Shown: in pieces, positions 1,658 through 58,600 of the stretch | Layout of the letters: each line of letters begins with the position of its first letter | Position numbering within the stretch: position 1 is the first letter of the stretch | Assembly: GCA_903860135.1 (NCBI GenBank) | Contig: CAIOPG010000004.1 | Coordinates: 185,687 to 249,686, forward strand | Reading direction: 5' to 3' | Length of the DNA: 64,000 nt | Origin: Candidatus Omnitrophota bacterium | Lineage (GTDB): Bacteria > Omnitrophota > Gorgyraeia > Zapsychrales > Fredricksoniimonadaceae | The notes under the pieces: generated by a model | Seen by the model: only the letters and a program-made list of their open reading frames with translations | Told to the model about the DNA's origin: nothing | Database searches by the model: none | Translations under genes and position numbers: made by a program

Positions 1658-1727
1658 ATATTTAATGCACGTTATTGTCTTGGAATTGACAAAGACTGTC
1701 AATGGTTAAAGCCGGATTGTTTCTCGC

Positions 1728-6052: not shown

Positions 6053-6199
6053 GGTGCATTGTTATAGCATAATAATGCCATGGAGAAAACCAATATCCAT
6101 CCCTTCCTTCAGCCCTCTTTTATAAAAAAACAATATTTTTAAACCTGAACAGGTTATATTGTGTAAATATATATAAAAATTAATAGCATACGAGGCGAT

Positions 6200-29838: not shown

Positions 29839-29864
29839 ACGACATTTCCTTTTCAATTAAACCA

Positions 29865-31647: not shown

Positions 31648-32943
31648 TTATGGCTGTGAAGCCTTTTCTATCTGACGATCCTTGACAAGCTGCACATCCC
31701 GCGCCACCGCTTGTGGCGTCTTTTCACCAATGATGATCGCTTGGATCCCCTTGAGGAAAGCCTCACTGACCAGTGGATCCTCGTTCACAGGCCAGACCTT
31801 CGGATGGGTGCTTGTTTCCATGACCCTGGAAAAAGCCGCAAGATTCTCGGGAACACCGGCCATTGCCTCACGATTGACCGGAAGGCTGTAAAGGTGCGTG
31901 AAAAGAAATACCTGCTGTTCCCTCGCTGTCAACCATTTAAGGAACGCGATGGCCTTGTCCTTATCAGGCGAAAGGTTATTAACCACCAGCGACGTCTCGG
32001 CACCTCCCCAAGACACCATGGGCAAGGCTGGATTAAACACCGGAAGGGGAACAACGCCGTAATCGAGGTCCGGCCTCATCTGCCTGTAAACATGCACTGA
32101 CCATGCCCCGTTGAACGTAAAGGCCGCACGTTCAAAAACAGCAAAGTCCTGCTCGGCCAGCTTGTTGCCTTTGGTCACGATTCCGTTCATAAAAGCCCCG
32201 CGGTCATGCAATGTCTTGAAAATAGTAAAAACCCTGAGCCAATCCGGATCCGTATAAGAAACCTTGCCTCGGAACGTATCAAAAACCTTCTGTTCACCCA
32301 TAATATTGAACGCATAATTCGAAGCAAAACAGTCAATGAGCCACAACTCGCCAAAACCCGATACAAAAGGCGTAATGCCGGCACGCCGGAGCACATCAAT
32401 ATCCGCCAGCCACTCTTCAAACGTCGCCGGAGGACGGGTAATGCCAGCTTGCCGGAGCAGTGTTTTGTTATAAAGCAACTGCTGACTGCCGACGTCGATC
32501 GGCACCCCGTAAATACCCGGTTTTACCCCGTCAACATTCCCTTCCACAAAACGGTTCACGTCAACGGCCTTGGTAAAAAGACTTTTTTCCCAGGCATTAT
32601 TGTCCATCTGAAAAGCATCGGTCAGATCAGCCACAAACCCGGCCTTGATGAAAGCCGCGACAATGGCTTTCTTGTCAAGGATGCTGTAAACATCCGGCAA
32701 AATATTGGCTTGGGCAGCCGCAATGATCTTTTGGGTGTACGCATCAGAAGGGGCAAAAAGAGCCAACTTGACCTTAATGCCTGTCTGCGCTTCATATTTT
32801 CGGGCGAGCACCTCGAACGCATCCTGGCGATCGGTCATCCAATGCCACACCTCAATGGTGTTGGCCTCCTTCCCAGACTGACCGCAACCGCAGGCTGTTG
32901 CAGCCAGCATCAAGCCACATAGCAGGGCAAGAAATAGCTTCAT
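31648..32943 (-). CDS. ABC transporter extracellular solute-binding lipoprotein (family 1, sugar-type)
   Basis: Lipobox LMLAATACGCG. 431 aa. Aromatic-rich SBP-like sequence. ATGA overlap with the upstream GH94-like gene. Confidence 0.8.
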   Translation of the reverse strand: MKLFLALLCGLMLAATACGCGQSGKEANTIEVWHWMTDRQDAFEVLARKYEAQTGIKVKLALFAPSDAYTQKIIAAAQANILPDVYSILDKKAIVAAFIKAGFVADLTDAFQMDNNAWEKSLFTKAVDVNRFVEGNVDGVKPGIYGVPIDVGSQQLLYNKTLLRQAGITRPPATFEEWLADIDVLRRAGITPFVSGFGELWLIDCFASNYAFNIMGEQKVFDTFRGKVSYTDPDWLRVFTIFKTLHDRGAFMNGIVTKGNKLAEQDFAVFERAAFTFNGAWSVHVYRQMRPDLDYGVVPLPVFNPALPMVSWGGAETSLVVNNLSPDKDKAIAFLKWLTAREQQVFLFTHLYSLPVNREAMAGVPENLAAFSRVMETSTHPKVWPVNEDPLVSEAFLKGIQAIIIGEKTPQAVARDVQLVKDRQIEKASQP

Positions 32944-35654: not shown

Positions 35655-35740
35655 GAAAGAAATCTCCTGATTCAATTAAGGAATGGAACCGACGAATAAT
35701 TTTAACTTGGATTAAAATAAATAACAAGCGGAAAAAGGTG

Positions 35741-36115
35741 TTATGCGGCTATCCCCGCAACTTCGGAAGCGATCTTGACCAAGCGGTTCAACTGGAAAAG
35801 CTTGACCTGATGAAATTCCATCCCGACATCCCACAGCGAAACCGCCTGAGGCTTGGACCAACACACACGCCCGTTAAGGGCAAGGGGGTCTTTTCCATCA
35901 GGAAGTTCCACTTCAAGGGAAAGCCTGTCATCAATGAAAAACCGCTCCTTGGTGTGCAGGCGCACACCCGAAGCAGAAAAATCCCTCAAAAAAACATCAC
36001 CGCCATAATCTACAGATGAATCCTTGAACCGAACGGGAAATTTCGCTGAAAAACGCTCAAACATACGACGATTTTGCTTGCCTGACTGTTCCTGATCTTC
36101 AGATACGACATCCAT
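35741..36115 (-). CDS. PilZ domain protein (c-di-GMP binding), single-domain
   Basis: RRMFERF ... DFSASGVRL (RxxxR and D.SxxG motifs). ATG at 36115 with GAGGGGG RBS. The track ORF is over-extended to 36244. Confidence 0.7.
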   Translation of the reverse strand: MDVVSEDQEQSGKQNRRMFERFSAKFPVRFKDSSVDYGGDVFLRDFSASGVRLHTKERFFIDDRLSLEVELPDGKDPLALNGRVCWSKPQAVSLWDVGMEFHQVKLFQLNRLVKIASEVAGIAA

Positions 36116-36155
36116 GAAGCCCCCTCGTATTAACTGGACGCAATGCCCAGCACCC

Positions 36156-36509
36156 TCAAGCCGACATTTCGCGGTGCAGGAACGGCGCATCGAGCGCGCT
36201 ATCAATGTCTTTCTGGGTTCCATCAACCACATCCGCAAATACAAGCCCCACGCGGTAACGCTCGGATCCCGGAATTTTGTTCACCCATTTAACCTGACCA
36301 ATGACCAGGACGGGCTCCGCTCCGGCCTTGAGAACCAACTCAAGGGCTATTTTCTCGTTCACTGGAACATTATGCCTAGAAATAAAGCCCAAGCCATGAC
36401 GGCTGATATCAACGGTTTTAGCGGATGTGAACGGTGCCCCTTCTTTGCCATCAACAGGGACCGCGCAAGCCCAACGACTGAATTTTCTTTTATTATTGTC
36501 ATTTTGCAT
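36156..36509 (-). CDS. PilZ domain protein (c-di-GMP binding), single-domain
   Basis: RKFSRW ... DISRHGLGF (RxxxR and D.SxxG motifs). 117 aa. Confidence 0.7.
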   Translation of the reverse strand: MQNDNNKRKFSRWACAVPVDGKEGAPFTSAKTVDISRHGLGFISRHNVPVNEKIALELVLKAGAEPVLVIGQVKWVNKIPGSERYRVGLVFADVVDGTQKDIDSALDAPFLHREMSA

Positions 36510-36938: not shown

Positions 36939-37679
36939 ATGCTTTTGACGGATATTATTTTTCTTATCTTCCTTGGTGCCTGCGCCGGTCTTGGCGCCTG
37001 GCGCGGTTTTCTGCGCGCCCTGATCGGTCCCGCGGCTTTCTTAATAGCCTGCGCGCTCAGCGGTGCCTATTCCGCCCTGACACATAAAATCTTTGAAAGC
37101 CTCCTGGTCCTGCTCTTGGGGCCGCCGATCATTGGCTGGGGTCTGAAAGCCTTAGTGCGCCGAAAGGATCAGGATCAACCGCTGCCGCCGCTCGCCTGCG
37201 TCAATCGTGTTTTCGGTGCCATCATCGGCCTGACCTGGGGCGGCGTCATGGGGCTTGTGCTCATCGCCATCGTCGTGATCCTGCCGCTGGACAGCTTCGG
37301 CCTCGGCGACATCACCCGGGATGTCCACGCTTCCGCCACCCTCGCCCTGTTCAGGCACCCGCTCGAAGCCTGGCGGCTGATCCCGCCAAAAGAAATAAAC
37401 GCATGCCTCGACGGCCTGTGCGGTATGCCGAAAAAAACCCAGACCTCACTCGCCCAAGACCAGGATATCCAGGAGCTGGCCCAGGATCCCCGCCTGCAAA
37501 AACTCCTGCTTGATCCGGTTGTACAAAAAGCCATCACAGATAAAGACTTCCCCGCCCTCCTGTCCAACCCGCAGATCCTCGACATCGTCCGCGACCCCGC
37601 GCTCGTGGCCAAAATGCTGAAAGTGTTCCCCAAGATCAGGGCCGCCCAGCAGGCAGCATCAACCTCATCATCCCTGTAA
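36939..37679 (+). CDS. cvpA: CvpA family membrane protein
   Basis: N-terminal TM helices LLTDIIFLIFLGACAGLGAWRGFLRALIG... typical of CvpA (colicin V production). 246 aa. Converges on and overlaps the giant ORF 3' end. Confidence 0.7.
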   Translation: MLLTDIIFLIFLGACAGLGAWRGFLRALIGPAAFLIACALSGAYSALTHKIFESLLVLLLGPPIIGWGLKALVRRKDQDQPLPPLACVNRVFGAIIGLTWGGVMGLVLIAIVVILPLDSFGLGDITRDVHASATLALFRHPLEAWRLIPPKEINACLDGLCGMPKKTQTSLAQDQDIQELAQDPRLQKLLLDPVVQKAITDKDFPALLSNPQILDIVRDPALVAKMLKVFPKIRAAQQAASTSSSL

Positions 37680-40600
37680 AAGGCGTATACTGTGAATCCT
37701 CAATCAACGCATGCGTAAAATCAGCACCCTCCAGCTGAGCTCCTGTAAAATCACAACGGGATAGCTGTGCGCTGGAAAAATCAGCACCTCTCAAATCTGC
37801 ACCGCTGAAATTAACATTTTCAAAAATACCATGACTGAAATTGCCCTTAAAAGCATTGATGCCGCTGAAGTCAGAATCCACAACATTAGCTTGTGGCATG
37901 AAAATACGCGAAAAGTCTGCCCCTATGGCACTCACCCTGTTCATGCGGATAAATCGCAATGATGCCTCCTTGAAATTCGCTCGCTGCAAACTTACATCAA
38001 CAAGCCGTGCATCCATCAAGTTTGTTCTATAGAATTTTGCACCACTTAAATCAACATCATTCAATACAGGCAGATCACAGCTGATAATACTGTAATCCAT
38101 GCCTTTTAAAAGACTGATAAGCTTATTGCCAACAAGAGCACGTTCATTGATACGCAACAAAGGTTTGTTATCCTTCGGCATATTGACAATGTTCTCAAGC
38201 CTTTCTTTCACAGAAGAATTATTTAAAAAAGAGATGCCCACTTCGTTTTTGATAACAGAAAGTAATTGCCCCCCCCTAAAAGGACGGTACAAATACATAT
38301 CTATTTTACCTGCTTTCGGAGATCCATACCGAACAATCAGGCCTTCCAGGCGCCTTTTCCCTTGGATAACATCATATAAGATAGGAGCATCAAGGATCAC
38401 AGCTGTTCTTCGACCGGATAAACGCTCGACAGATTTCTTTAATACACAAACATCCCTTGAAAAATCACTCCCGTAAGTTGCAAGAGGGATAGCCTCCTCA
38501 GCATGAGAAGCTAAATAAAAATTAATCCTGTCAAACGGCATCCGAACCAATTCCCAATCATGCTTGTCCCAGGCCTGCCGAAAGTACGATTCAGCAAAAG
38601 GGCAAACCGGCTCAGTGATCCCCCAGCGCGTTTCAACCATGGGGACATCATCCTTCAACTCCTTGTTCTTCTCGTGCACCGCGGCGGCTTCCTGATGCGC
38701 GCGCCGGAGCGTTGTGGCCGCGTTGACTGCCGCTATCCCAACAGCGACGAGCGCCAGACTGCTGGCAAGGATAACAGCGGCGGGCACACCTGTCATGCCC
38801 GGGAGCATCAGGAAAAAAAGCGGCAGGGCGTGGCAAGCCAGAGGCTGCGGCCGCGGGGGGCGGGCGGCCATCTTGATCAGCTTGATATGCGCCGGTGCAC
38901 CCCAGTGTGTAACACTCACGCCACCGGCACTCAACCAGCGCAAGGGCTGTGCAGGATCCGCTGCCTGTTTCTGGGCAAGCAAAGGAAGAATATGATCTCG
39001 CAACAACCGATAAAAACCGTCGGCTTCAAACAAGCCCGGGATGTTCGTCTCTGCCGGAGCTGACTCCTGATACGCCACGGTCTTCAAGAACAAGCGCCCC
39101 AGCAATCCCGGCATCCGGCCACCCCCTGCACGCACCCGGGCCAACCAAGCCCGCACCTGCCCCAGCATGGCCTTGACAGCCGCCGCGCCACCAGGCATAT
39201 CAAACCAAGAAAACGGGATATCTTCGAGCGTGAACAGCAGGGGGGCCAGGCGGGGACGAATCAAGCGTTGCCGGGACGACAAGGTGTTCTTTGTCATCCA
39301 CACCTCCTGATCTTCCGGCCCCACACGTACTGCCTGAACCCAAATAACGCCCAGCGCGATCAACACAACCCCGACGGCCAACCAAGGCCATGCGCTGACA
39401 CCGATCGTAGCCACCAAAGAACCCAAGGAACCAGAGGATATTAAAAAAAGAAGCGGCCAGGCATGAACGGGTAGTTGCCGTGTCGCTGTCATTGATGAAG
39501 AAACATCTCTTTTTAACCCATAAGCCATGGGATTCCGCATAACATTCAGCCTCAAGGGCAAAGGCAAAGCAGATGCTAAGGCTACAACTTTTCTCGAATC
39601 GACGGATGTGCGCAAACCAGCGACCCAATTTTTGAATTCACCCCATCCATGAATGTTCGGAAAATAAAGCCCCGTCCCAACACAGCCTGACCATTTATAA
39701 TCATGTTTGCCGTACGGCACCATAAGTACAATATCCCCTTTTTGTGTATCTGCCAGCATGCTGCGATAAAAAGGCTGTTCACCGCGCATCTTGGCATTAT
39801 CACCCGGCCCTTTGTCAATCATGATCACACTGCTTGAAATACCTCGCCTCGTATGCCGCCATTGCTGCGACCAGGAATAATAATCTTCACTTGTCAATTC
39901 AACAGAAAACGTGCGTTGCGCATCAATGCTTCTGAGTTTGGTTAAACACTGCTGACGAAGATCTTCCATATTTTGCACAAATTCATACCCTGTTGAAATA
40001 AAATGGAATGTCGTTAAATTCGGGAAGTGTTGCGCCAACAAAACAGCATTAAGCGGATCACTATTCCCGGCGGCAGGATAAATCAGTGTTGTAAATGCGT
40101 GCAGATCAACGCCACGCGCCCTTAATAAATCCATACAATTCAACGCAACCTTATGCGCTGCACCAGAGACACGCTCGAACAATCCCTTGGCAAGCTGTTC
40201 CCCCAATTTAATATTATGTTCACGCGCCCGCTGAATTTCTTCCTCAGCCGTGACTGGCTTGGCTGATTTTCCAATAACAACCCCGGCGATCAACAGGGCG
40301 ACCCCACCTGCTACCAACGCAGCCGCAGAGATGGACGCTGTGGCACCAACTGCCGCCGCCGGCACAGCCGCCATGACCGGAACTGCCGTCAATAATATGC
40401 CGAGGATCAAAAGCACGGAAGATTTCGCCGCAAACTTCTTCAATCCCAACGCACCGACCAACAGGCTCAGTCCGGCAATCAAGCCACCCACCAACAGCCC
40501 ATCCTGGTTAACCATCGGGCTGACCCCAAAAGACCGCGCCTGAATCGCAGTCGCAGTCGCATCCGCCGGAGTTCCAAATTTGCCCTGGCCAGGGTTATCA

Positions 40601-43600
40601 TAAACAACGCCGGCTTTCGTGCGCGGCACAGGCAACGTCACCCGCGTCGCATCCGCCGGAGCCCCCTGCTTGCCCTGCCCCACCATCTCAGGCGTGACCA
40701 CAGCCACCGGTGCCGCCACCGGAACGGCCGTCACTGCCGGGATAGCCATATCAACCTTAACCGCAGCCTGCACGCGCTCAGCCGCCTCGGCGGAACCTCC
40801 CGCCAACAGCATCCCCAGGATCATCGCCGCAGTGGTATTCTTCTTGCGATTATTTCTGTTTGTGATCTTTTCAATACCGAAATGCGCAATAACAATGCAA
40901 CAGACCGTCCACATCATATTCTCGAAAGAAGCAATAAAGAAACACATGAACGTTGTTGTTGCTACTGTCTTTATCCAAAGAGCACCTCGGCCTTCACCCT
41001 TACCTTTAATTCCCAACATATATGCAATTAATATAACAATAGCAAAATCCAAAGCAAGATCCAAAGCAAGATCCAATATTTCCAACTCATATTCCAAACG
41101 TGCAACGGCTTCATCCGTTTCCTCTTGACGGCTTCTATCGTCTACATCCCATGATGACGCCATGGCAGTCGGTTGGACAGCACGCGCCTCAGCTTGAACC
41201 GGAGCCGCTGTCGATAGCATGCCAAGGACCAAAAGTATGGAAGATTTCGCCGCAAACTTCTTCAATCCCAACGCACCGACCAACAGGCTCAGTCCGGCAA
41301 TCAAGCCACCCACCAACAGCCCCTCCTGGTTAACCATCGGGCTGACCCCAAAAGACCGCGCCTGAATCGCAGTCGCAGTCGCAGTCGCCGGAGTTCCAAA
41401 TTTGCCCTGGCCAGGGTTATCATAAACAACGCCGGCTTTCGTGCGCGGCATAGGCAGCATCACCCGCGTCTTATCCGCCGGAGCTCCCTGCTTGCCCTGA
41501 CCAGGTGCGTCATAAACAAAAGGAGCGTGTACCTTCGGCAGGGGCACAACAACCCGCGTCGCATCGGCCGGCGCGTAGGCAACTGGCGCTGGTGTTTGCT
41601 GCAATACGGCGCGTGGCATTGTTGCCGGCATCGCGCCTTCTTGAATAACCCGAACCTGATACCCTATACCTGTCATGACCGACAAGCCCGCGATGGCCAA
41701 CCACAACTTGACCTGCCGGATTGCTTTCGCCATCGCTGTCGGTGATTCAGCAACAACGACAGGCACCGCCATTTTCTTCTTGTTTCTATCCCGTCTCTGT
41801 TCCGACTGTGCTTTACGCAGCAAGAAAGATGGAACAGCTACTCGACCATTCCTGTTTACATAAAATGTTTGCCGGCTCTGATTCTTACGCCCGATCACAC
41901 TGCCCATCACAACCAGCAACCCGCTGATCATGTCCAGCGCACGGTTATGCCCCTGCGCGACCGGTATAACCATATCAACCTTAACCGCAGCCTGCACGCG
42001 CTCAGCCGCCTCGGCGGAACCTCCCGCCAACAGCATCGCCAGGATCATCGCCGCAGTGGTATTCTTCTTGCGATTATTTCTGTTTGTTATCTTTTCAATA
42101 CCGAAATGCGCAATAACAATGCAACAGACCGTGCACATCATATTCTCGAAAGAAGCAATAAAGAAACACATGAACGTTGTTGTTGCTACTGTCTTTATCC
42201 AAAGAGCACCTCTGCCTTCACCCTTACCTTTAATTCCCAACATATATGCAATTAATATAACAATAGCAAAATACAATATTTCCGACTCATATTCTAAGAT
42301 AAAACTTATCTTCTGACGAAACTCATAACGCGCGACTTCCTCATTCGTCTCTTCTTGAAATTTCCTATCGCCCTCATCCTCCCTATACCTCAACGCATCC
42401 GCCGGTGCGCCATTGATACCCTGGCCAGGATTTTCGCCGATAACGACGGGCGACGCTACCGCAGGCAGTTGAACGGCACGCGCCTCGGCCTGAACCGGCG
42501 CCGCTGTCAACAACATCCCCAGTCCCAGCAGGATGAAGAATCTCGCCGCGAACTTCTTCACCGCCCTACCGGCGGCAATCAAGACCAACAGCACGGCCAC
42601 ACCACCCACGATTTCCAACCCCCTGTGATCCTCAACAACAGGATTTTGCGACGAAACCCACCTTTCCTGGTGCCTTCTTTCCTGGCCAACCATATCAACA
42701 CGCGTCTTGTCCGCCGGAGCTGATACCTGCAAGGCATCCATTACCGCTGGCTGTGCCGCAAACCACAATTCAACGGCTGAATCCATAAGCCGCTCGTCCT
42801 TTGGAGTTGATACAACGATCTTGTTCACATCAGAAGATATTACCGCAGGCTTTGCCGTGACAGAGCCGGGAAATAACAGGGAAGCAACAACAATAACGGG
42901 GAGGACAACAGAAGTAACCTTGCGGAAGAAATTTGAAACCCGTAAAACCCCGACGGGCGGGCTGGCGTCGGCCATGCGGCTGGCCTTCACATCCGGGCCG
43001 GCGTGCCATAACCAGGCGATGACAGCACCAACAGCAACCAGCACCAGCACCCCACCCACAAACGCCAGCACCGGCGGGCTCATCAGCGCGGAGAGGCTCC
43101 AGGTCGACGGTATCATCATTAGAAATAGCGGCAAGGCAAGGCCGGGCATGGCGGTAGAAGAAGGCGGCGCCGTCTTCGGATGAGATTCCCGTGAACGCAC
43201 ATACTTCACAACCGTCCCAACAGCCTGGCGTGCAATGTTAAGGGTCTTTGAAAAAATACTGTTATTCTTGCCATGCTGGCTGCCCTTATCCTTGTTATTC
43301 GATTGATCACCCTTATTGTTCTTGTCATTCTTATTCCCACGACGTAAAATCTTTCTCTCCTTGAAAACGCCCTTTATCTGCGCCGCCAGCACCGTTCTGG
43401 TCATGCCGATCATCTCGCGCACCGAGCGGAAACCGAAATAGCCCGTACCGGCGATCCCTAACACAAATATCCAATTCAACCAGATCGGCATCGCCAACGC
43501 CGTCCCTGACAAGAAAATACCAAACACAAGGAATGTTATGACCAGACCAGCAAATGTTCTGATGGCCCAACGATCACCGAACATTTCAGCCAGGCGCCAC

Positions 43601-46600
43601 CCGGATAACTGATACCGGCCATAACCATATTTCACAAAACGATCGAACTTATTCAGCGCAACAATGGTCTTTGGATCTATCGTCTTACCCGTTTCAACAG
43701 CGCTGACCTCTAAGAAATATCGCACCAACGACCCCAAAGCCGCGCCCCATGAAATCTTCACATCCACAAACGTGCCAAAAACACTTGTTCCCGTCAATAA
43801 CGCAATACCTAATAAAATATATGGCACAATTGACACAGCACCAATGGCCGTTGAAAAAAGAAATGGTACAACCCCAGCTAAGATAATAACCGTCCCCATA
43901 ATGCCGACCATGGGAATGCCGACTAGATGCACACGCGTCATCGTGTGCAGAACACCGGCCATCGCAAACAGGATCCCCGCCGCAGCAAGGGCAAACCAGG
44001 GCATCCAGGTATGTCCAACAGCAAGAATACTTGCCGGCAAGAAAAACCCGACAAATCCGGCCACCAAAAGAACCGTGGCCAGTGCTGTAAGCGATTTCTT
44101 CAATCTCTTTTCTGTATGCGCACCAAACTTCAGCAAGCCTTTACTAAAACGCGTAAAAGTATCAAAAAGCGCAAAAAGCGCTGTGCGCGACGTCGGAATA
44201 AAAGAGAACTTGAAGTGACTCACCATGAGGGCACCTTCCACAAATGACCATAACATGCTGACACAATAAGGAAAAGCACGATAAACATCTTGAACGAAAA
44301 GATAAAAGCCATACCAGAAACTGCCGTACCTGTAAATATGCCGCAGTAAATTAAAAAGATTGACCGCGTTCATCAAAATAATACTGGCTAACAACCAGCC
44401 CCAGATAGGCATTAGATACGCCATACCGCTCCAGGCCATCATCGTCGGGATCGCTAGGGACAATATAAACCCGAACGCAACGACCAGGTAATGGAAGAAG
44501 TTCTCAAGTACGCTCAGCTTGAAATCTGCCCCAATATGTTTGTTGGTGAAAACTTTATACATCATCGATGACAATAACATATACGAAACGTTAAACACAT
44601 ACCGCACCTCAGTCCAAAAAACGGATTCAGCATGCAAGCACGGCCTGAGCCATTCCCAAACCCATGCTAACTGCGTTGTGGCATAAACTTCAGGATTGAT
44701 CTCTTTCTGTATCAGATACGCGCCAGAATCCTCAACCGGCGTCATGAGCAGGTTGGCACCGGCAGCCGGATTGATCATCGCCTTGCCATAAAAGAGTGCC
44801 ATACCCTTAAATCCCATCTGGGCAACCTGGCTGAACACCTGCTGCATAAGTTTGTAAACCCGACGTCCCGGATACGCAAAACCGCTCGATCCCCAGATCA
44901 GGAACGCCGGATTAATGACAACCGCTTCCGGATGACGACCCATGAACTCCGCCGCATTAAGCCGGTAGGGGTTGGATCCCGGCATGACGCGGACCTGCGT
45001 ATCCTGGTAGGCACACACATTGTTATGCAGCCAGATATTCAAGGCAATACCGCCATTCTTTAAAGTCGAGATGATCTCATCACCCTCATAGATCGGAACA
45101 TGGGCATTGGAGGCATGGGCGGATTCGAAGACATGTGCCCATTCGATCATGGCATTATATTCCTTGATCACCCCACCCTCGAGGAACAGGTCATAATGCG
45201 TCGCGCGGAACCCCAGCACAAGTGCTGCAAATTCCATCTTGTCGGCAAATACAAACCGCTCGATCCCGTCCATAAAGAACAAATGCTGATCATAATTTGG
45301 AAATTTCTGCGCTACATACGCCGCAAAAGCCCGATTCACCGCACTGGCACCTGCCTTTTGACCCGCACGGATCTTTTCCGCCACTGGCATAAAGGCCCAC
45401 TTATGCGTAGCATCGGCAAAGCCCTTCTCCTCAGCCAAAGCCCGCGCACGTTCATCATTGAGCAGGCGAATATTGGACCTTGCCGGATCAGCATTCTGCC
45501 ACATCGTTGTCATCATGAGCATTTGCATGATCTTCGACTTTGTTATTTCTTTATAATGAGGAAACTGGGTGTCGGTGATAAATAGCTCCTTGAGGTGGAT
45601 CTGCTCCTGCGTTCCTGTCAAGGCCCCGACCTTACTGGCGGCTACCCAACGCTCATATGCCTCCTGAAGCGAATCGAACTCCTGATCCGCCAGCATCACC
45701 GCGTGCCGGTAATCTGTATCCGCATTACTCATGCCTGCCAGGAGATGAACCGTGATCACGGCCTTGGCAAAAGAAGCCATGACCGCACGGTTGGCCGGAT
45801 CGATCTCGTCCATCATCGGACCCATAAGATTAACCGCAGCCAACACCGCCTCAGGTGACGTTGCATACGCCTTCTTCAATACACCCATGAAATCAAAATG
45901 CTCATCCGCCAGCGCCAGATCATCGGCGAGTGCGGCAAAACCCTGCAGACGTAATTTAGCGAGCATATTGGCATATTCCACCCCATGCGTGCGTGCCAGA
46001 TAACCGAACATGCTCGCCGTGATACTGCCTTGAAGGATTTCGATCTTCGCCAGCTCGGCATCGATCTTTTTAACAAGATCCTCATCAATTTTATTTTCTG
46101 TCAGTATTCTTTTAACACCTGTACGCGTAAAGTCCGAATAAAGCTCGGCAGAACCATTTTTGATCAAGGTCAACACCTTACCCACCATATTCAAGCGTTC
46201 CATGGCACCCATCCCCTTGCGGGCATAATGCATCTTGATCATTTTAGCAAGCGCACGCTCTTGTGGCGCATCGATCACCAGCGACATCGTCCCCTTGCCC
46301 AAAAAAGCTTCCGGCGTATGCGACACTTGCTCAATATAGGTCTGCACATTGGTAACCATCTGCTTGTGTTTGGCATACGTGTCCACTTCAACCCGGCGAT
46401 ACGCCGGTGAATTCATGTTCATATATAAATATTCCCGTGCCTGCTCCCCCTCGAGGCGAGGAAAATCCGTGCCAAGGTAAACCGCACGCCTTAAGAGCTG
46501 TCGTTCACGCGCATTGATGCGGCCCGACCTGTACAACTCGATCCCTAAACCATCTATATGTTCGGCAAAGGTGACCCAGTTAGGCAGGATATAGCCATAA

Positions 46601-49600
46601 ACATTCTCAACCCTCTGATATACCCGATTAACCCGTCCGAAATATTTCCTGTTGTCACGATCCCAATAAGGTCTAAACAGCGAGAAGAACAAATTATGCC
46701 GGGATCGCACCACGGGATTCCATATCTCACTGCGTGTCTGATAATTGGATTTAATAACACGATAAACAACAATGACAGGCTTGAGCATAACAATGGTGAT
46801 AATCGCCCAAAGTGCCGCCGTATTGAACATACCAAAAGTGCCCGCCAGCATCATCGCCGTATACCATTTACCAAACAAGAGCCACGCCAGGATTCCTTCC
46901 ACAAGGCTGTAGGTCGTTGAAACAAATACCCAGAAAGTCTTCTCGCCCTTAACCGGCATATACGAAAAGAGGACCGCTGACGTGGATATGGACCAAAATA
47001 GGCCGAACACCAATAGCCCAACCGACCCGGTCACGCTCAGCAGCCAGAAAGAACCTGCAAGCCCCGTCAGCATCAAGGCCGCCAATACCGCACGCTTCAC
47101 CGGAGAATGGACGCCCAGCGTATCCTGGAACGTGGTCTGATGCTTACGTCCCGTGGCACTGCGCTTGAATTTACCCAGTAGCCCTCCAAACAAGCCGTAA
47201 ATACGCTTGTACAAATGGAACATCCCCTTCTTCTTTTCAACCTCGATCTCTTTGCGGAAAGCGATCGGTGAATCAAGCTCAAGCATATGCCAGTATGCGA
47301 TCAAGAACGGCTTAAAGCAAGGCAGGAGGGTTTCCATATACAAATTCGCAGCCGTGTTCTTGCCCTTGTTCGCTGATACCGCATTGATGCGTTGTTGCAG
47401 TCGTGCAAACACACCGTAATCGGCCGTATCCGTATCCTTCTTCGCCAACACCACCTTGATGCTTTGTTGCAGTCGCGCCAATACGCCGCGATCTTCATCA
47501 TCCCTGCGGGAATTGTCTTTCTCCATATCCTCTTCGGCGTACTTAGCCTTCACGGTCTTTTCATAAAATGCCGCCAAGCCTTCAACTTCCTCTACCGTTA
47601 AACCAAATACGTTGGCATTCTTATTGATCACATCCCATGATAATTCAAACTTCGCCTCATCATTGGCCACCCTGCGGATCGGAGCTTTTCCGTTAACCTT
47701 GATCTTGGTCATGGCATCATAAATAATCGCCCCCCTGGCTCCAGCCGCCGCCTCAAAACCAGCTTGCTTGAATGTTCCCTGCCGGGCTTTCAGCAATTCA
47801 CAACCTTCCAACACCATGGCTTCCCGCTCAGCACTTGTCTCGGCCACCTGCGCCAGCATCGCTTCAAATTCTTCAAAAACATCCATGTTATATGCCTCCA
47901 GGCTTGCTTCACGGCTAATATTTGTCCGTATAAGGCGCTTGGATAAATTCTGGAAGAAATACAATATCTTCTCGTCATAGAAACCATGTGTGAGCGTAAT
48001 GTTGCCCTGCTTTTTAATACCATGTTTATCAGAATCAGCCACCCAATTGTAGATCCCCTGCATTTCATTTGTCACATGCTTCAAGTTGTTCATATAGAAC
48101 AAATACCGCCAGAACCGGACATTCTGCCGGATAAAATCATGGTATTCTTTCATGGCCTGGGGATTAAGATTGGCGTCAGGATAAGCATTTCTCCTCTTGT
48201 CCATGAACCAATGCGTAAGGAACAGGACTTCCTGGAAAATGAAACCATCACCGCCAAAAGATAAATGCTCGGTTTCGTTGCGTGGCGACTGCATATATTT
48301 AAAGAAAAGATACGCCTCAAAAGTAACAGGTTCAGACGCCTTAAAGACCGTTGTCGGATTGCCGATAAAATTCATCTGCGCATAGGTCAACGGCATACGC
48401 GACGGCCGCTGGGCGACCTGGAACTCAAACTCCGCCAGCATCTGCCTGTAATAATCCTCCTTGTGCGTTTCTGTCGCAAACGACAACCCATGATAAACAA
48501 TGAATTCATCTATGCGGTTGCGCAGGACTTTTTCACGAATAAACATCTTTACAACATCGTTGAATGAATACAGCGCCTTATTCAAAGACAACGCCTCGGC
48601 ATGCTGCGCAAGAGCTTCCTCAAATCCAGCGTAATGATGTTCTAACAAGTGCACAGCTTCCCTGGCTTCAGGCGTCCTTAAACGGTAGAAGATGGAATGA
48701 TCCTTCGCCCCCTCATTGCCCGCCCTGACCTCAATGACCTTATACAGTTCCTGGATGCTGATTACTTCAAGGCTCTTTTCCTGCGTGTACTTCCGGGTGA
48801 TATCGCTCTTGTGTTTGACTTCAGTAATACTATAAATCCGCGCCAGTTGATTCTTGAATTTAAGCGTTGTGCTAACAAGATAAATGAGATTGGCATAGAT
48901 AGGCTCAAAAACCGCACGTTCATTACTGGCCATCTGACGCTGACGCTCCGCCTCAGCCGCCTTGAAAAGTTCTCTAAACCCAGGAATCGGGATTCCCGCC
49001 TCATCAAACTGCGTTTTCTTGGCATCCATGATCTGCTTGATCGTATTGTTAGAAACCTTCTTTGTCGCCGCATACGCATCTATCTGCTTTTTAGCGAGCT
49101 TAAGAAGAACAGCGTCAAATGAAAGGCGGTGAGTAAATGGCTCCGTCACAGCACTCCCCGGCATCCTTGCCGCCTCGGCCACAAGAACATCGAGATTATG
49201 CTTGGCCAAGAAAGCCCGCAAGACAGGTTCAAGTGCCCGTTCAAAAGCCGCATCGAGTGCTTCGGCAATCGTGACCTGCAAATTCTTATTACGGCGTTTT
49301 TCAACCTCAACCAAAGCCGCCTTCAACCACGCCCGCTTGCCCGCATCATCAAGTGGCAGAACCCTTTCGAGCAGATCCATGATCCCCACCGCATGGCGAA
49401 CACCCTTGGCGGCACGAACCCGTATCATGGTCAATAGGTCACCTGTTGTCAGCGGATCCTGAAGCAACGACTCCAGATGCCATGCCTTTTCCACCTTGTC
49501 CAGTATCGACGCCAGCCTAACCATCAATGAAACCAGCGGCCGACCCTCAAGCCGGGCCTTGATCGTCGTATTGGCTTTGATAACGCGCCTGACTTTATCA

Positions 49601-52600
49601 AACGCCCCCTTGATCCAAAGCGCCCTGCTCCTAGCCGCTTCCTCACTCCTGACCGCCTGCATATAATCCCTGGCATTCTCATCAAAGCTGATCACCTTTT
49701 TTTCATACATGGCAACAAGTTGCTCTACCTGCTCAGAATCCATTCCGCCCGCTTCCAAGCGCTCGCGCACCGTATAAGCATCAAGGATCTGTTTCTCCAG
49801 ACGCTCTAGGCCTCCGTGTTCCTCAATATTATCCATCGCCTGACGGAGTTTGCTCCTATTCTCCTGGTAAGCTTCATAAGAAAGCACGCCATCCCTGTAG
49901 GCACTCTTCCAGCCAGTCTCAATGGCATTGATCTTGTCCGTCAGGGAATATTGAGACTCAACATCTTCCCTGTTATCATCGGTGATCAAGTCGTACGTTT
50001 CAAGAAAATGCATCACATCCGCTTTCTTGCCAGGAACAATCAGCCCGTTAGCCAGATCAAAGGCGATCTTGGCCTTTGCCAAGGCTACCGCTTCTTCATG
50101 CGATAACCCGCCGCGCCGCTCAAACACCTCCACAATCTCATCGAGAGGCATCTCATGGTTCAGTTTAACCGTCCCGTAATGACGTGCCCAATAATCACGC
50201 AAACGACGTACAGACGGGAACACAGAGGACGTCAATGTCGCCAGCAAAATCGCCGCCAAAATAGGCAGTGTCAAGATCAATAACCAGTGCTGATTCACAA
50301 CATCATTATAAATCGGCATATCCGCTGATGGGTTGCGTGCAACGCTCGATGTGACAGAAGGTTCTTGCTTTTCCGCAGCCTGTTGCAGCGGCGTCCAGAT
50401 TTTCTGCCTGACACTAATATATTTTCCATTGATCGACATGACGCTTTTATCATTAAGCCCCAATGACATTAACGCACGCCCCGTCAAGGAATTCGAGAAA
50501 AGATCCAGATTGCTATTCTTATAAACTTCCCCATAAAAACGCTCACCATTAAGTAAATTAATAGTCTTGTTTATTGGATCCATCGCAAATACAGCAACAA
50601 CCTTGTTGTTCACAGAAAGCCTGGACAAGATCTCCGTATTATCTTGCGTCACCGGCACCTGGCGAACTTCCCTGACGATCGTGCCATCCGCAAGCTCAAA
50701 ATACCGCGTCATAAATGTGCTGTACTGATGAATATCCAACGTCGTCCTTGATCTTTCAGGACTCTTTAAATACTCCAAGGTGTTATCAAGATTCGTTAGC
50801 GTCCCGCCAAGGTGCATGGTGTACGCCGGCTTTCCGTCATATGTAACCTGAACAAAATGCTCTTTAGGATAAAACTCTTCAATCTTCCCGGAATCAAACC
50901 AATAAAGAATCTTGATCTGCGCCTTGGCATTAAACTCATGCTCTTGACGCCATTCATACAGCACAGAATAACTGTAGCAATGCGCAAAGGCCTGTTCGAA
51001 TTCTGTCTTGCGCACCACCCTGTTAGTCTCGGGCTGAACCGCCACCTCACCGGAAGCGACCATAAATGGCAATGCCATCTTCCGGTCAAAATAACCCTTT
51101 TGCACACTTCGGTATTCCATGAAACGATAAGCATTGTTTTCGATCTTGATCACATCCACAGGCAACGGGTCATTATCTGGAATATAACGCACCAAATTAA
51201 GATCAACTTTCTTGGTTGTATCATTCAAAGAACCCAACAAAGTACGCCGTTCAATCCTGATCAAGTTCTTATATCCTAGGAAAGCAAGATCCTTCTGCCT
51301 CTCAGCAAAGCCAATGACCTTATCCAACTGTTGCTGCCTGTAAAATTCCTCAGGCGCGATCCTTCCACCCGTTTTCTCAAAGTAAACATCACCTTGATGT
51401 CCCGTCGTTTCAGCGCGTGTCATGATCCCGTAAGCCTCGCTCGCCATTTGTTTATCAAACTGCGTGTTCACCACAAAAGTCGCATCTTCAACAAGCGGCG
51501 CTGACTGAAGTGCCACAATGTGGTTCTTGGGGTCTTCCTTGAGTTTCCGGACAAGATGCGTACCATTACCGATAATTTTCAAACGAGACTCAACAATATG
51601 AACGTCCCCCGTAATGCCCTGTTGTTGCTTAAGCATGGCAATCGTTTGGTCAAACTGCTCCAGCAATGTAACTTCCCGGCCATTGATATTGCCTTTAATA
51701 TTAAAGACCTGTTGACGCGCCTGTTCCAATGTTAACGTCAGGCTGTCTTGCGCCACCTCGATAAGCCTGGCATCCACAAAACGATTGGGATCATTTCTGT
51801 CCTGCTTGAGCACATACGTATAGGTGATATCCCCGCGGGTGTATTCCATCTTCCACCCCCAGATGCCGCCAAAATCAAGCGGAAAGATCGAACCAGGGAA
51901 ACGATTCGGCTGAAGAAGCGTTCCCCGCGCAAAATGATATTTTCCATCCTTGGGGTTATACGTATAAGCAGCTTTAACGCTCGGATGCGTAAGCACAGCC
52001 TTGCGTATCACCTCAGGTGACAGTGTCAAAACCTGCCTTGTTGGCGTATAGCTGACTTCATGACTAAAGTCAATGCCACGGGCTTGGCTGAAATTATACA
52101 TACGGCTTGTCCTGTCAGGGAACAACACCTCTACCATGCCGCTAACAGGCTTGCCATCACGATAAGTATCTGGATACCAGCTAATGAGCTTTTCCCCAAG
52201 GAAACTCTTATCATAATTGCCTTTGCTTGTCGTCTCTTTATCCGTGAGTGCAATCGCCGTGGCAAATAAATTCGTGGATGCATTGCTGGGATTTAAAATA
52301 TCCGAAACTTTAAGCTCAACATTCTTAAAATGAATTTTACCTCTTTCCACAACATAATTGATCGGCGTACGGCGGCCGGCAATGTAATCATCAAAACCAT
52401 AAACCTTGAGACCCTCGACAATCTTGGATCCCTTGCGGTCATCCATCAAATAGAAAGCCCCCAAGTTACGCGTCGTACCGTCACCAACTAAGCCAAGTTT
52501 GTCACCCTTTTCCACGTGCAGAACATCCACAAGGTCATGCCAATAAGCCTGCACCTGATTCAAAGTTACAAATACCTTATCCTTCCACTGCGCCTTCGCG

Positions 52601-55600
52601 CTGTCCTGCCGCGGGAACTCGACAAGATACGCACTATTCATCAAAGCACTTCCCTCTTCGGGGTCATTAAGTTCACAACGAATGATCGGTTGGCCGACAT
52701 CCATCCTGACAAGCCGCTGCGCCAGGCTCATATACTCAATCGTATTCCCGCCCAATGGATCCATATGGTCGATCGACAGCACATACTCCGCATATTTTGG
52801 AACTTCCTTAAGGACCTGTTCTTTACTGCTGAAGATCTTCGATGCTTTATCCTTGAGGACGACCACATAACTGCTCTCGTTATACGGGCGCTTCTTCAGC
52901 TGGGCGATTGACTCTTCGAGCGCCCCCTTCATGGGCTCAAGGATGATCGGATACGCACTGGTGATCGTCTTGCCGCCCAGCGTATACGTCCCTGCCGGCA
53001 GGACCATTGCATCACCGGCGCCCATAGGTAGCAGAATGCCGTTAACCTTAAGCGCAAACCGCTTCGTCTCCCTGTCATAGATAACCCCCATGCGCGCCAA
53101 CGCCTGATCCGTTCCCTTCCAATACTTGAGCGGTATCGCAAGTTTAAGATCCTTCCTGGTCAAATAGGCATATTCTTCCTTAGATACAGCCACAGGCAAT
53201 ATCCCCTGAACAATCGCCCGGCCCTGACCGTCATACATCGCCTTAAGCGTTTCAAGCACATCCGGCGAAAGATGAACCACCTGGCCATCACGCGTCATGA
53301 GGATGCTTGTCTGACCTTCCGATGAAACGTCACCGGTTACCGTGATCTCACGATTAATGGGCTGAGGGTCGACACTGTTATACGGCACCACCATATCCAG
53401 GTTTTGGATCGTCGTAGCATCGCGTGGCGTGCCTGCCGGGAGCTTTAGATCCTTATTTTTGTTCTTAACAACATCCAACGTAACCCCGCGCGTCAAGCTG
53501 AAGCCTGGGACCAGGCTCTGTCCTGGAGTAATACCCAAATTTGTCCCAATGCCAATATCAACGCCGCCACTAGCCTTCCAACCAGCGAACGTTTGCAATC
53601 CGCCCACCTTGGCCGAAAGACCAGCGCCGTAATTACCGTCGGAATAGAAACCATTCAAATGTCCCACTGTCCCGTTAATGCCAAGCCTGCCGTCATGGCT
53701 GTAAACAAGACTCGCCGAACTTTCCGCGCCCATCAGCGTGCCATTCAACGCCAGGCCGGCGAATGACGTCACACCAGCATTCTGCCGGCGCTCAACGCCC
53801 ACAGAAACCTTCAAGCCCTTGACGATCTCATACTGGTAAACAGCGCGTGCAAACTGCTCCGCCTGTGCCGCGCTCAGATTAATCTTTTCCGAAGGAACAA
53901 CATTCCCCTGGGCATCACGCAGCCGATCGTGGGTGAAGGCATCCCAATACGTGAACTCAGCGGTTGTATTGGCTGTCCCTTGGGTACGGCCTACTTCCAC
54001 CGTGATCTTGCCGCCATTCAAGATGGCATTACTGACCGCCGCCTGCACATTCGTCCCATAGGTGCGGGCATTGTTCTGATCCGCCCAGGCAACAAAACTA
54101 TCCCAGCCAAGATAAACAGATACCTTGTTAGAGCCGTTATCCGCCACATCGCGCTTAAAGGCAACGGCATAATCCAGGACGGTGGTGTTGGTATTCACCG
54201 TCGTATGACCAGCGTCACTCGTTGGATCATGGGCATCGAGAATAAGATAATTGGATTGTCGATACTGCGTAAGATTAAACGACGAGTTAAAGATCGTCGT
54301 CGGATTATACGTCAGCCAATTTACAGTGGCTGCTGTCAGGGACACAGGCGCAGCCGTCGCATCATAAGGCTGACGGCTTCCGGCACCGAGCGTCCACGTT
54401 GCACCATTAAAAAGCGGCCGCGTGGTGGAGCCAAAAGATACCGCCGTCCCATTATGGATATTGTTGGTAGAACTGCCCATCGCAGAAACTTCCGGCGTCA
54501 GGACAACAACCACGCCCGCCTCGTCCACAACATAAGCAGCCGCCTTGATGCGCGCCGCAAATTCCCCCTTCACCAGGCTGATGGCACTGGCTTCCGCCGC
54601 CGGCGCCAGATGAAGGCCCTTGATAACCTGCAGGGCCTTTTCAAGTTCTTCCTTGATCCGCTGGCTATAGACGGCTGCTTCTGCCGTGTACCGGGCAGAT
54701 ACCTCCAGGCGCTGCTTTTCAGCCGCCGCCATCTGCGCCTCAATTGCCTGAGCCGGAGCATAAGCATCCATAACCTGTTGCCGCGCATTATTCCGGGAGC
54801 CCAGCGCATCGTTGACAGCCCTCGAAGCCCCGGCACCGTTAGCCACCGCATTCCTGAGGTTATTCATCACCTCATCGGCAAATTCCTTGTTTTTCTTCAT
54901 TTTAGCCGCAACGTCCGGCGTAAAAATCGAAAGGTCATCAAATCCCGTCCGTAATTTCTGACTCAACCGCAAATTCTCGGCCCACAATGTCGACATGGTT
55001 TCATTGAAGCTCAGCGCATCCTGCGCCAACAACATAATGGGCCTGTCAAAATCCAGTTCACTGCCATGCGCGATGGCCACACGATCCATGGTCTCAACAT
55101 TATTGATCAGTGCTTGAACCGTAGCCGTAGCCTCCGGCGTCAAATTCTTGCCCTTCTGCAAATATGCCACTTCACTCATGATCTCCGTATGCCGTGCGCC
55201 CGTATAATACGGAATATATTCGGCAGGATCCTGCAACGGAATGTTCTTGAAATCCTGAACCGATACTATGATCGAGCTATCAAACAAAGTCTTGGTTTCA
55301 TTCAGGATCGCAATGTTTTCTGTCTCAATGGCGGTCTTCTCCGAAACAACCGCATCAAGATTAACAGGGCTGTAACCAAAATACTGCGTCGTCGGAGCGT
55401 TTCTATATAAAGCCTTGCTATTCTCAAGTACCGCGATATCTGCCTGCAGATTAGCGATTTTTTGATTAAAAACATTCGTCAAAGAAACAGGATTGTAGTT
55501 GAAATACTGTGTCGTCGGAGCACTCCGGTATACGTCCTTGCTTTGATTTAACGCCGCAATCCTGTCATTTATAATAGCGATCTTTTGGTCGACAACAGCA

Positions 55601-58600
55601 TATGGATCAAACCCGCCTGATTGCAAATCCACGGCATCCTGATTAACACGCGCCAGATCTGCAACGGCCACTAGCCGTTTTGCTGCCGTTTCATCTACAG
55701 CCTTTTGGAGAAACCCTGCCCACACCGTATCCCCTGCGGCTGTCGCCTTGTTCAGCTCGGCATTCCAATACGCAAGTCCGTTCTCAAGGGACTGGATATA
55801 ACCACCTGTTCCATTGGAACCCAAATAATAATTACGCGCCGCCTCTATCTGCGTTGGCGAGAATAAGACAGTAGAGAAATGCTGGCTTTCCATAAGATTA
55901 AGATTGTCGATATACCCCTGATTCGTGGAAATTTCGGCATCAATCAAGCTAACCTGCGATTGAATATAAGCCGCCGCATCATTATCCACAGACGGATCAT
56001 ACCTGGTCATATCTGTCCTGTCCTGCATAACGCGGACAAGATTCGCTCTGGCAGCCGTTAATGTGATCTCCGTGTTAGCAAGACAGCTTTCAAGAAACTG
56101 TACCCGCGCAGTGTCCCCTGCGGCATTCGCCTTGTCCCGTTCGGTATTCCAATACGTACGCCCATCTTCAAGAGACTTGATATAACCACCCGTTCCGTCA
56201 GCACCAACGTAATAATCATGCGCTGCGGTTATCTCTGCCTGCGATAAGAATACCGTCGAATAATCATTCTCCCTCGCCTTCGTCTGCAGACTGGCAAGAT
56301 TGTTCTGCGCTTTAAGAATATCGGCATCGATCTTATCGATCTGCCCCTGAAGGAAATTCGCCGCATCCGGATTAACAGCAGGGTCACTCAAAACCATATC
56401 CTTTGCATCCTGTACCACACGACCCCAAGCGCGCTCAATATTTATCTGTTTCCTCTGAGCAAGGCTCAATGCCTTCTCAAGAATCCCGATCAATGTGGGG
56501 TTCCCCTCGGCTTTAGCTAATTGCTGCCTCCAGAAAACAACAGAATTCTTCGCTTCCTCGATAGCCCCCACATTCCCATCCTTACCAAGGTAATAACCCC
56601 TCGCCTTTTCCATATCCGCTGGCGAAGAATATACCGTGTCATAATTGTGAGTATTCTGCAGGCTGAGCGCGGCAATATTTTGCTGGCTTTCAAGAATCGC
56701 CGGCGCGATCGGATCAATATAAGTCGACTGAATATACGCCACCGCCTGCTCATTGGTGGTAACAGTCTCTGGCGTAAAATAAAGCCGTCCCCACAAAAGC
56801 GGCGTTATTTCAGCATACCGGCGCATGACCGTTGCGCCGTCTGCAAATGATTTCACCTGTTTCGCTGCCCAGTCAAGGGCTTTGTCGTCGAACACCCCAG
56901 GGATCGTATTATAAAGCGGCGCGGTCTCCATCCGCGACAACCCGATCGATGAATGCAGGTACTGCAACTGATCGATCCTGGCCTGATTAACCGGCAGGTC
57001 CGCATCAAACGATAATCCGGCACCAGTCTTTTCTGCCTTGCGCACCGCCGACTGCGCCTGCCCTGCCAGCGCATACTGCTGAAGGTTCGAGCTCTCGATC
57101 TGCCGACCCAATTCCGTCAGCGTCCCATAGCCCTTTCCAAAACGCTTGAAATCCACGCCGCTCAAGGCCTGCTCCACCGCCGCATCCACCCGCAAACGAT
57201 TGCTCTCATAATCCGTCGGTATTGTTACTAACATCGGTACTTCAGGCACGGCCGTCAAATTACCCAAAGAATCTTCCGTTACACCTTTTGCATCCGGGTT
57301 CTCCTTAAATTTCTTCACGAGTTTCTTGTCATTGGAGCTGTACTCCATAAGCCCAACTTCACCGGGCTTTATACCCGGTCCATCCGTAACGATATTGCCT
57401 TGGGTGATATATTCCTCCGGATTGAGCCCACGGCTTCCCAAATACGTCTGGAACTTCAATTTATTATCCTCGCTCAGCGGCTCCACTTGGTATTGCTTCA
57501 TATCTGCCTGCGTGTACAAATATATAATCCTATCCGCAAGAATAATGCGTGCCAGCGACAATCCCGGCAAGGCCTTCGACAGATCAATATAAACCTCGAT
57601 CGTATCCTTGGTCTGACGCCCCGGCAGGCTCACGCCAGCGGGCAACAGCTCATACGCTGAACCACTCGTCAAATAGATCGGCGACGGAACCTTGTCCCCA
57701 AACGTCTTGCCCTTGTCAACATGCTGCGGCTCGACCTTAAAGGTGCCGACCGCATCAGGAGCCGTACCCGGACGTCTTTCCACCAATTCATAAACACTTT
57801 CCGGATGCTCCAGCGTCGGCTGCTGTTTCAACCTGAATACGAACGTCACGCCCGTGTGTACATCCCGGTCAAACGTGCCGCCCAAGGCAAAAGCCAGCGA
57901 CGACAATGTTTCTTTGGCGCTGGACAAAACAACGGCAAATACCGGCTTCGCTGGAACAAGAACATCCTTATCATCACGATGCTCCGGCCACATCAACGGC
58001 TTGCCTTCAGGCGTCAAGATCGGCCTGTCAAGATCCACCAACGCAGGCACCCACTGATATCTTCCGTCACGGAATGTTGGAACAGCCTGTATATCAAACC
58101 GGTGCTTTGTGTCATCTTTCAGATAAGAATCACCAAACTTCACGCCCGCAGACGGATTCACAGCAATACCCCTGTTCTCCCGGCCATTTTCCACACCCGC
58201 CTGCAAGCTCCTGGCCATAGCCGCATTCTGTTCCCTCTGCCTGCGGCTGATGATCGGTGCCACCTCCCCTTCATGCTGGAACAAACCAACACTCTTGAGC
58301 CATGCCGCTTTGAAATCCTCCAGCGGCGCATACAAGCCATCTGTCGTGCTGCCTTCAAAACGGAACACCTGGAACATCTCTGTCACACCCTCTTTACCCT
58401 GTGTGCTATACAGCTTGTTCCGGTCGATCTTGTAATAAATGAGGAACTGATCGCCCGGCAAAGTCTTGCTTTTCTTCGTCACGGACGTACCCTGGACAGG
58501 ACGGGATCTGACCCATGTGATGTTCTCATCGGTCTCATTATCCGCCGTTGTGTTGATCAGTTTTTCCATATCTCCCACAACAGCCGCCCATACATGACGC

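Follow-up and report, generated by a model that had tools for sequence, protein, structure and literature searches.

A conserved membrane module in an Omnitrophota giant protein with a predicted fold resembling processive GT2 synthases

Results

We analyzed a 64,000-nucleotide stretch of DNA (the window) from a Candidatus Omnitrophota bacterium (GenBank assembly GCA_903860135.1, contig CAIOPG010000004.1, positions 185,687 to 249,686), in which a minus-strand open reading frame (ORF; 37636..63909) encodes a giant protein of 8,757 amino acids. On balance, and with moderate confidence, we favor the reading that residues ~5600-6720 of this protein form a single conserved module, corresponding to a very divergent membrane-integrated glycosyltransferase (GT) with the architecture of a processive GT family 2 (GT2) synthase. 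As predicted, the module would start with four transmembrane (TM) helices, followed by a helical insert of ~500 amino acids and a GT-A-like core of ~200 amino acids, both of them cytoplasmic, and continue past the core with a pair of TM helices, then an interface helix together with a gating loop, and finally four more TM helices. The likely assignment of the fold to the GT2 synthase type follows from the combination of a predicted structure and a set of invariant residues that coincide with the catalytic positions of these enzymes.

Membrane layout of the giant protein

Residue numbers were derived from window coordinates as (63909 - coordinate)//3 + 1, which places the region singled out in a preliminary description of the window at residues 5590-7004; all features of the giant protein lie on the minus strand. 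TM segments were called with the Kyte-Doolittle and Hessa dG scales on 19-residue windows. Hydropathy yields ~32 candidate TM segments over the whole protein, with 4 in the first 5,500 residues vs ~28 in the last 3,200, so that their clustering is real and not a product of chance. Both scales resolve four TM helices, none with more than one charged residue (5608-5626, 5630-5648, 5661-5679 and 5691-5713), which make up an N-terminal four-helix bundle (46771..47088, residues 5608-5713) with an in-to-in topology. They are followed by a soluble stretch of 761 amino acids (5714-6474), in which the lone marginal hydrophobic peak (6042-6060, Kyte-Doolittle 1.65) is not called by the Hessa scale. Past this stretch, 11 clear TM segments lie between residues 6475 and 7019 (starting at 6475, 6495, 6606, 6636, 6667, 6697, 6789, 6809, 6924, 6947 and 7001), with an additional amphipathic stretch at ~6530-6565, for a count of 11-13 helices C-terminal of the soluble domain. 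Because the loops before the first TM helix, after the fourth and in the turn after the sixth are rich in lysine and arginine, the soluble domain probably resides in the cytoplasm, according to the positive-inside rule.

These results bear out much of the layout put forward in the preliminary description. The 4-5 helix bundle it located at 46700-47140 corresponds to the four TM helices at 46771-47088, and its suggestion of a membrane-embedded polymer synthase with a cytoplasmic catalytic domain gains support from the charge of the loops flanking the soluble domain. The second membrane region, described as having roughly 15 helices at 42900-44800, is indeed rich in TM segments, but it contains the smaller number of helices given above and the membrane-rich region extends past the 42900 limit, to about residue 8395. 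The lysine- and asparagine-rich low-complexity linker was also found, at residues 6856-6884 (RRGNKNDKNNKGDQSNNKDKGSQHGKNNS; 43258-43344), among a set of TM hairpins (42853..43545, residues 6789-7019) that present weak conservation, restricted to the closest homologue. On the alignment, these hairpins are lineage-specific and fall outside the conserved synthase-like module.

Several near-identical TM-hairpin cassettes are duplicated further along the C-terminal membrane region, at 40741-42183 (residues 7243-7315 and 7651-7723), with identities of up to 96% over 73 amino acids and 91% over 67 amino acids, and additional duplicated pairs are located at residues 7089-7197 vs 7523-7607 and 7446-7567 vs 7744-7841. 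The duplication of these cassettes suggests recent intragenic duplication or, possibly, an assembly artefact.

Conservation of the module

An exhaustive HMMER search over 1.84 billion protein representatives retrieved 63 relatives of the region at E <= 1e-3, including 32 at E <= 1e-30, and most of these relatives are proteins of 2,000-7,600 amino acids with the same collinear layout. Conservation is organized in collinear blocks at residues ~4080-4440, 5100-5330, 5600-5890 (the TM bundle) and 5965-6150, followed by a strongly conserved core at 6250-6720, with almost no conservation beyond residue 6850. The 5600-5890 block is conserved and collinear in at least nine homologues. The recurrence of these blocks in relatives argues that the succession of TM bundle, soluble domain and TM domain constitutes a conserved module, rather than an accident of one protein. 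In the core alignment, the polar residues K6284 (followed by N), D6303, Y6374-G-K6376, P6391, E6393-D6394, W6420, R6422, E6434, R6436-Y6437, N6440 and K6464 are invariant, and the F..T.K pattern at 6570-6575 is nearly so. The relatives that carry them are only 25-55% identical, and, as a set, these invariant polar residues look like those of an active site.

The first two blocks (window ~50590-51670 for residues ~4080-4440 and ~47920-48610 for residues 5100-5330) are collinear with the module in many homologues, and a strong single TM helix (4543-4561) lies between them. If both blocks are counted, the conserved unit may reach ~2,600 amino acids.

In a genome survey with one genome per species, the core was found at 25 genome loci, nearly all of them in metagenome-assembled genomes (MAGs) of Candidatus Omnitrophota or in MAGs labelled as uncultured Planctomycetales. 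The complete genome of Candidatus Velamenicoccus archaeovorus LiM contains a core match within an ORF that spans the whole 20.9-kb locus, with a spacing between TM bundle and core equal to that of the window protein (~600 amino acids). One MAG, DATJEK01, harbors the core module on three separate contigs (L019, L024 and L028), which indicates that one genome can hold several paralogous copies of the module; this MAG is labelled as Eisenbacteria, and a binning or labelling issue may be involved.

No match to PDB sequences was obtained for the region with either the single sequence or the family profile, and a scan of genome contigs using the single protein as query found nothing. A k-mer-prefiltered search of 5.8 billion proteins likewise returned zero relatives for the single sequence and for the family alignment, probably because its list of 8,000 candidates was filled by hydrophobic low-complexity words. 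The family is entirely missed by standard domain annotation and by k-mer-prefiltered searches.

Predicted fold

Two AlphaFold2 (AF2) models were generated for the region. In the first one, covering 1,200 residues, the helical part at ~5730-6130 is well modelled, with a predicted local distance difference test score (pLDDT) of 70-90, and Foldseek returned no PDB match for it. Together with partly conserved blocks, this model delimits an all-helical cytoplasmic insert of ~517 amino acids (45220..46770, residues 5714-6230). The second model, based on a cleaner alignment of 32 sequences and spanning residues 6231-6740, has a pLDDT of 73.2 and a predicted TM-score (pTM) of 0.69, and shows an alpha/beta core with long helices after it. 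The core (44518..45087, residues 6275-6464), which we read from its invariant columns, its model and its fold matches as a GT-A-like catalytic domain, holds almost all the polar residues that are invariant in the family. The soluble domain had been described beforehand as large and helical, which holds for its first two thirds; its last third (~6275-6464) is alpha/beta in the model.

The second model was searched against the PDB with Foldseek, following the structure-based check proposed in the preliminary description, and the top 43 consecutive matches were all membrane-integrated processive GT2 synthases, comprising chitin synthases, hyaluronan synthases, BcsA, plant CesA and Cgs, with E-values from 4e-3 to 0.4 and probabilities of up to 1.0. 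Structural comparison scored highest with RsBcsA (4p00; 14.7, over 343 residues at 4.3 A), followed by CesA1 (12.4), Chlorella virus HAS (12.3), PcManGT (11.8), CslF6 (11.4), XlHAS1 (11.3), Chs1 (10.5), Cgs (10.2), EcBcsA (9.7) and chitin synthase (9.6). Sequence identity within the structural alignments to GT2 synthases is 6-12%. The module presents two features of this group of enzymes: a predicted catalytic domain of GT-A fold that faces the cytoplasm, and TM helices on either side of it that, with interface helices, would form a channel. The conserved membrane part that we read as the polymer channel on the basis of hydropathy, conservation, model and fold matches (43750..44517, residues 6465-6720) starts with two TM helices and a cytoplasmic RHxxR turn; an amphipathic helix resembling an interface helix then leads to the gating-loop motif, and four TM helices complete it.

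Register of the invariant residues with GT2 motifs

GT2 synthases share a signature composed of the DD, DxD, (T)ED and QxxRW motifs, together with KAG and the gating-loop motif FxVTxK (PMC6821405). The family profile was aligned with hhalign to E. coli BcsA (EcBcsA), under relaxed settings and over 430 columns, and to a seven-member GT2 synthase profile, and in both cases the invariant residues of the family match the register of six signature motifs of GT2 enzymes. K6284-N6285 (45055..45060), with an invariant K, aligns with KAG at K340 of EcBcsA, and the invariant D6303 (45001..45003) with the first D of DxD, at D360. F6373-Y-G-K6376 (44782..44793), where YGK is invariant, falls opposite FFCGS (FFCG 430-433 of EcBcsA), and V6392-E6393-D6394 (44728..44736), with an invariant ED and a PGEDS consensus, opposite TED 455-457. 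The TED motif holds the catalytic base (PMC6821405); the E6393-D6394 pair is invariant in 19/19 aligned sequences and in 45/45, and in the model VED 6392-6394 is located at the N-terminal end of a helix, as in the finger helix of GT2 enzymes. T6433-E-V-R-Y6437 (44599..44613), in which E, R and Y are invariant, aligns residue for residue with QRIRW 493-497, and is predicted to lie in a helix directly ahead of the first post-catalytic TM helix. Lastly, F6570-I-P-T-S-R6575 (44185..44202; family consensus FIxTxK) aligns with the gating-loop motif F617NVTAK622, with F6570, T6573 and R6575 opposite F617, T620 and K622, and with the V lost.

The spacing between motifs differs little between the window protein and BcsA, with 19 vs 20 residues from K to D, 70 vs 70 from D to FxxG, 40 vs 37 from ED to (Q/T)xxR and 134 vs 121 from R to FxxTxK. 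The alignment to the seven-member profile, made of diverse bacterial GT2 synthases, reproduced the register found with BcsA, and added an NP opposite the TP of QTPH. The preliminary description had been unable to match GT2 and had reported that QxxRW was absent. The literal motif is indeed missing, but an invariant variant, TExRY, occupies the equivalent site, and the failure to match GT2 is overturned as regards both the fold and the variant motifs.

Several observations weigh against the GT2 synthase reading. Sequence comparison with BcsA and the GT2 profile is non-significant (hhalign P = 0.02-0.1, Prob <3%), and 2/60 block-shuffled BcsA sequences score as high as the real one or higher, so sequence alone is no proof of homology, which is not established statistically at this level. 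The 32 family members gave zero Pfam matches at E <= 1. The fold assignment is itself a medium-confidence prediction from a 32-sequence alignment, and in the first AF2 model the conserved core has a pLDDT <50. At the motif level, conservation in DxD does not extend to the second D (DAH in the family consensus, DTQ in the window protein), and QxxRW retains its R but has Q replaced by T and W by Y. No DD motif was found: hhalign sets D312-D313 of BcsA opposite the non-conserved L6243-E6244, and residues 6150-6283 contain no conserved acidic pair, in a stretch where the family alignment is poor, where 6150-6230 falls outside the second model and where the remainder corresponds mostly to its low-confidence N-terminus (model residues 1-53). 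The canonical Rossmann-like nucleotide-binding N-terminal half was not found either, and the ~500-amino-acid helical insert between TM bundle and core sets the module apart from BcsA. Finally, two homologues examined have no PilZ gene next to them, and it is for this reason that coupling of the module to the PilZ-domain gene located downstream of the giant ORF is speculative.

Proposed mechanism and alternative explanations

Whereas the TM layout, the conservation, the match of the predicted fold and the motif register are results of the analysis, we infer catalytic activity, processivity, the nature of the polymer and PilZ coupling. Under this model, the cytoplasmic core would bind a nucleotide sugar, with D6394, from the invariant ED pair, serving as catalytic base. 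Within TExRY, R6436 and Y6437 would replace the R and W of QxxRW in diphosphate binding and acceptor-sugar stacking, and the FIxTxK loop would gate the active site. The growing polysaccharide would leave the cytoplasm by way of a channel that the flanking TM helices make, and emerge on the outer side of the inner membrane. The PilZ protein encoded downstream might supply cyclic di-GMP (c-di-GMP) control in trans, by analogy with the fused PilZ domain of BcsA.

The alternative that best withstands these data, which we consider unlikely, is that the module is a descendant of a GT2 synthase that has lost catalysis and now anchors the giant protein in the membrane, binds glycan or acts as a passive channel. 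The undetected DD, the unconserved second Asp of DxD, the substituted Q and W of QxxRW and the failure to recognise the N-terminal half of the GT-A fold in the models all speak for this alternative. However, the positions that are invariant are precisely the K of KAG, the D of DxD, the ED pair, the R of QxxRW and the F..T.K of the gating loop, and a dead enzyme is unlikely to retain this pattern of catalytic and substrate-contact residues across relatives with such low identity. Less probable still is a non-processive membrane GT2 of the DPMS, GtrB or PcManGT type, which would add one sugar onto a polyprenyl-phosphate carrier without polymer synthesis or export.

The preliminary description had also contemplated a transporter, and we regard a solute or polymer transporter of the MFS, MOP or RND type, carrying an inserted soluble domain unrelated to it, as very improbable. 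One homologue has a Polysacc_synt_3 match (E 1.5e-4) and the low-confidence first model yielded weak matches to OCT1, an MFS protein (E ~1), but no transporter fold appears near the top of either fold search, and the profile searches suggested at the outset, run with Pfam and NCBIfam, gave no GT or transporter family match in the region. The least probable explanation is a bacterial relative of the eukaryotic GT48 beta-1,3-glucan/callose synthases (FKS), which are alike in overall layout, with TM helices, a large cytoplasmic domain and many TM helices. What we took to be short collinear resemblances to GT48 motifs (ED, GKG, xRxYY) was not upheld by hhalign. Using an FKS1 sequence verified against the PDB and a purpose-built GT48 alignment, hhalign returned a Prob of 0.3% for each, FKS1 was absent from the fold searches, and neither the giant protein nor the 32 family members matched the Pfam Glucan_synthase family (PF02364), in agreement with the initial failure to match GT48.

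Comparison with known systems

Returning to the GT2 synthase reading, the closest comparison is with BcsA, whose TM1-4 would correspond to the four-TM bundle of the module, placed likewise before the catalytic domain. Apart from the insert and the motif differences detailed above (DD, second DxD Asp, and TExRY for QxxRW), the module shows no significant sequence similarity to BcsA, and the two differ in context: BcsA is a free-standing enzyme of ~750-870 amino acids with a fused PilZ domain, whereas the module starts at residue 5600 of an 8,757-residue protein, PilZ is encoded here by a separate gene and there is no sign of a BcsB-like partner. Other membrane-integrated processive GT2 synthases, including plant CesA and CslF6, hyaluronan and chitin synthases and the cyclic beta-1,2-glucan synthase Cgs, share only 6-12% sequence identity with it in the structural alignments, and the module lacks the plant-conserved region (P-CR) and class-specific region (CSR) inserts of CesA and the N-terminal domains of Chs.

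The giant proteins of the Omnitrophota ("Archaeovorins" and relatives), treated by West-Roberts et al. 2023, Seymour et al. 2023 and Nielsen and Lui 2026, provide the second point of comparison. Published accounts describe low conservation, a scarcity of annotated domains and an unclear function, and the domains reported for these proteins include GT5, GT1, SecA-like, peptidase and adhesion domains. The protein described here shares with them a very long ORF, many TM helices and few annotated domains, and homologues of the module occur in long ORFs of Omnitrophota genomes that include the one in V. archaeovorus LiM. At 8,757 amino acids, it is smaller than the proteins of 10-30 thousand amino acids and larger targeted by published studies, and a Pfam scan of the whole protein detected no SecA_DEAD, dockerin, GT1 or GT5 domain. 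In the Omnitrophota giant-protein literature searched, we found no report of a GT2 or cellulose-synthase-like membrane module, and no link between these proteins and cellulose synthase. We consider the module a divergent form of an enzyme type already known, located in an unusual host protein and not found described in that literature.

Omnitrophota giant proteins rank among the largest proteins known, and a module conserved across the phylum, which resembles cellulose, chitin and hyaluronan synthases in predicted fold and active-site pattern, gives them a concrete, testable biochemical hypothesis. Its recurrence suggests that giant proteins make and export polysaccharide, and this reading would also explain the frequent presence of a PilZ gene after giant genes. 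It further illustrates the extent to which GT2 synthases may diverge: QxxRW has become TExRY, a DD is not detectable and hidden Markov models give no match. We put forward, more tentatively and as a possibility that we rate as somewhat doubtful, that a cryptic BcsA-like synthase-translocase constitutes the conserved core of the Omnitrophota giant proteins, which would be self-contained, c-di-GMP-controlled polymer-extruding machines with PilZ as their detached regulatory domain. If true, this would include the 39,678-residue protein of V. archaeovorus, the polymer could perhaps be a cell "coat" or a predator-prey glue, and giant proteins would not be solely degradative adhesins.

Genomic context and additional features

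The locus downstream of the giant ORF follows the organization described for Omnitrophota giant genes, which typically have a PilZ gene downstream, with genes for a solute-binding protein, permeases and glycosyl hydrolases after it (West-Roberts et al. 2023). This synteny and the distribution of the homologues point most likely to an Omnitrophota genome as the source of the window. The PilZ-domain gene (35741..36244, minus strand) lies ~1.4 kb downstream of the giant ORF and is a candidate c-di-GMP regulator in trans, with intact c-di-GMP-binding motifs: RRMFER (RxxxR) and DFSASG (DxSxxG). It is adjoined by a gene for a protein of 911 amino acids resembling glycoside hydrolase (GH) family 94 (32940-35675, minus strand; Pfam E 7e-25), followed by a sugar- or solute-binding protein (31648-32943), two ABC permease genes and a GH2-like protein (27529-29856). 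The substrate of the GH94-like protein could hint at the polymer of the locus; this protein has no NCBIfam equivalog match, and NCBIfam searches on the neighboring genes gave no clue to the polymer. A locus resembling a type II secretion system upstream and a divergent SecA_DEAD domain have also been reported for Omnitrophota giant genes (West-Roberts et al. 2023); the window covers no more than 91 bases upstream of the giant ORF start, short of any such locus.

The sole domain recognized by Pfam and NCBIfam in the whole 8,757-residue protein is a set of C-terminal pentapeptide repeats (37684-38115, residues ~8599-8742; PF00805, E 3e-18). Toward the N-terminus, tandem repeats of ~125 amino acids each, with 32-48% identity, occur at 55600-56814 (residues 2366-2770).

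Among the remaining genes of the window, one encoding a membrane protein similar to CvpA (colicin V production) separates the giant ORF from the PilZ gene (36939-37679, plus strand), in a weak assignment below the Pfam gathering score (E 5e-6). A secretin (GspD-like) gene (173-1702, minus strand), followed by mutL and mutS, is located 36 kb downstream of the giant ORF, and 11782-12912 (minus strand) encodes a Fic/DOC family protein that has a DUF4172 domain at its N-terminus. The MnmG encoded at 22373-24250 (minus strand) is identical on nine public metagenome contigs with the same neighbors, such as the 85-kb contig k141_666940 of ENA ERZ27313599, and the host organism has therefore been assembled repeatedly from metagenomes.

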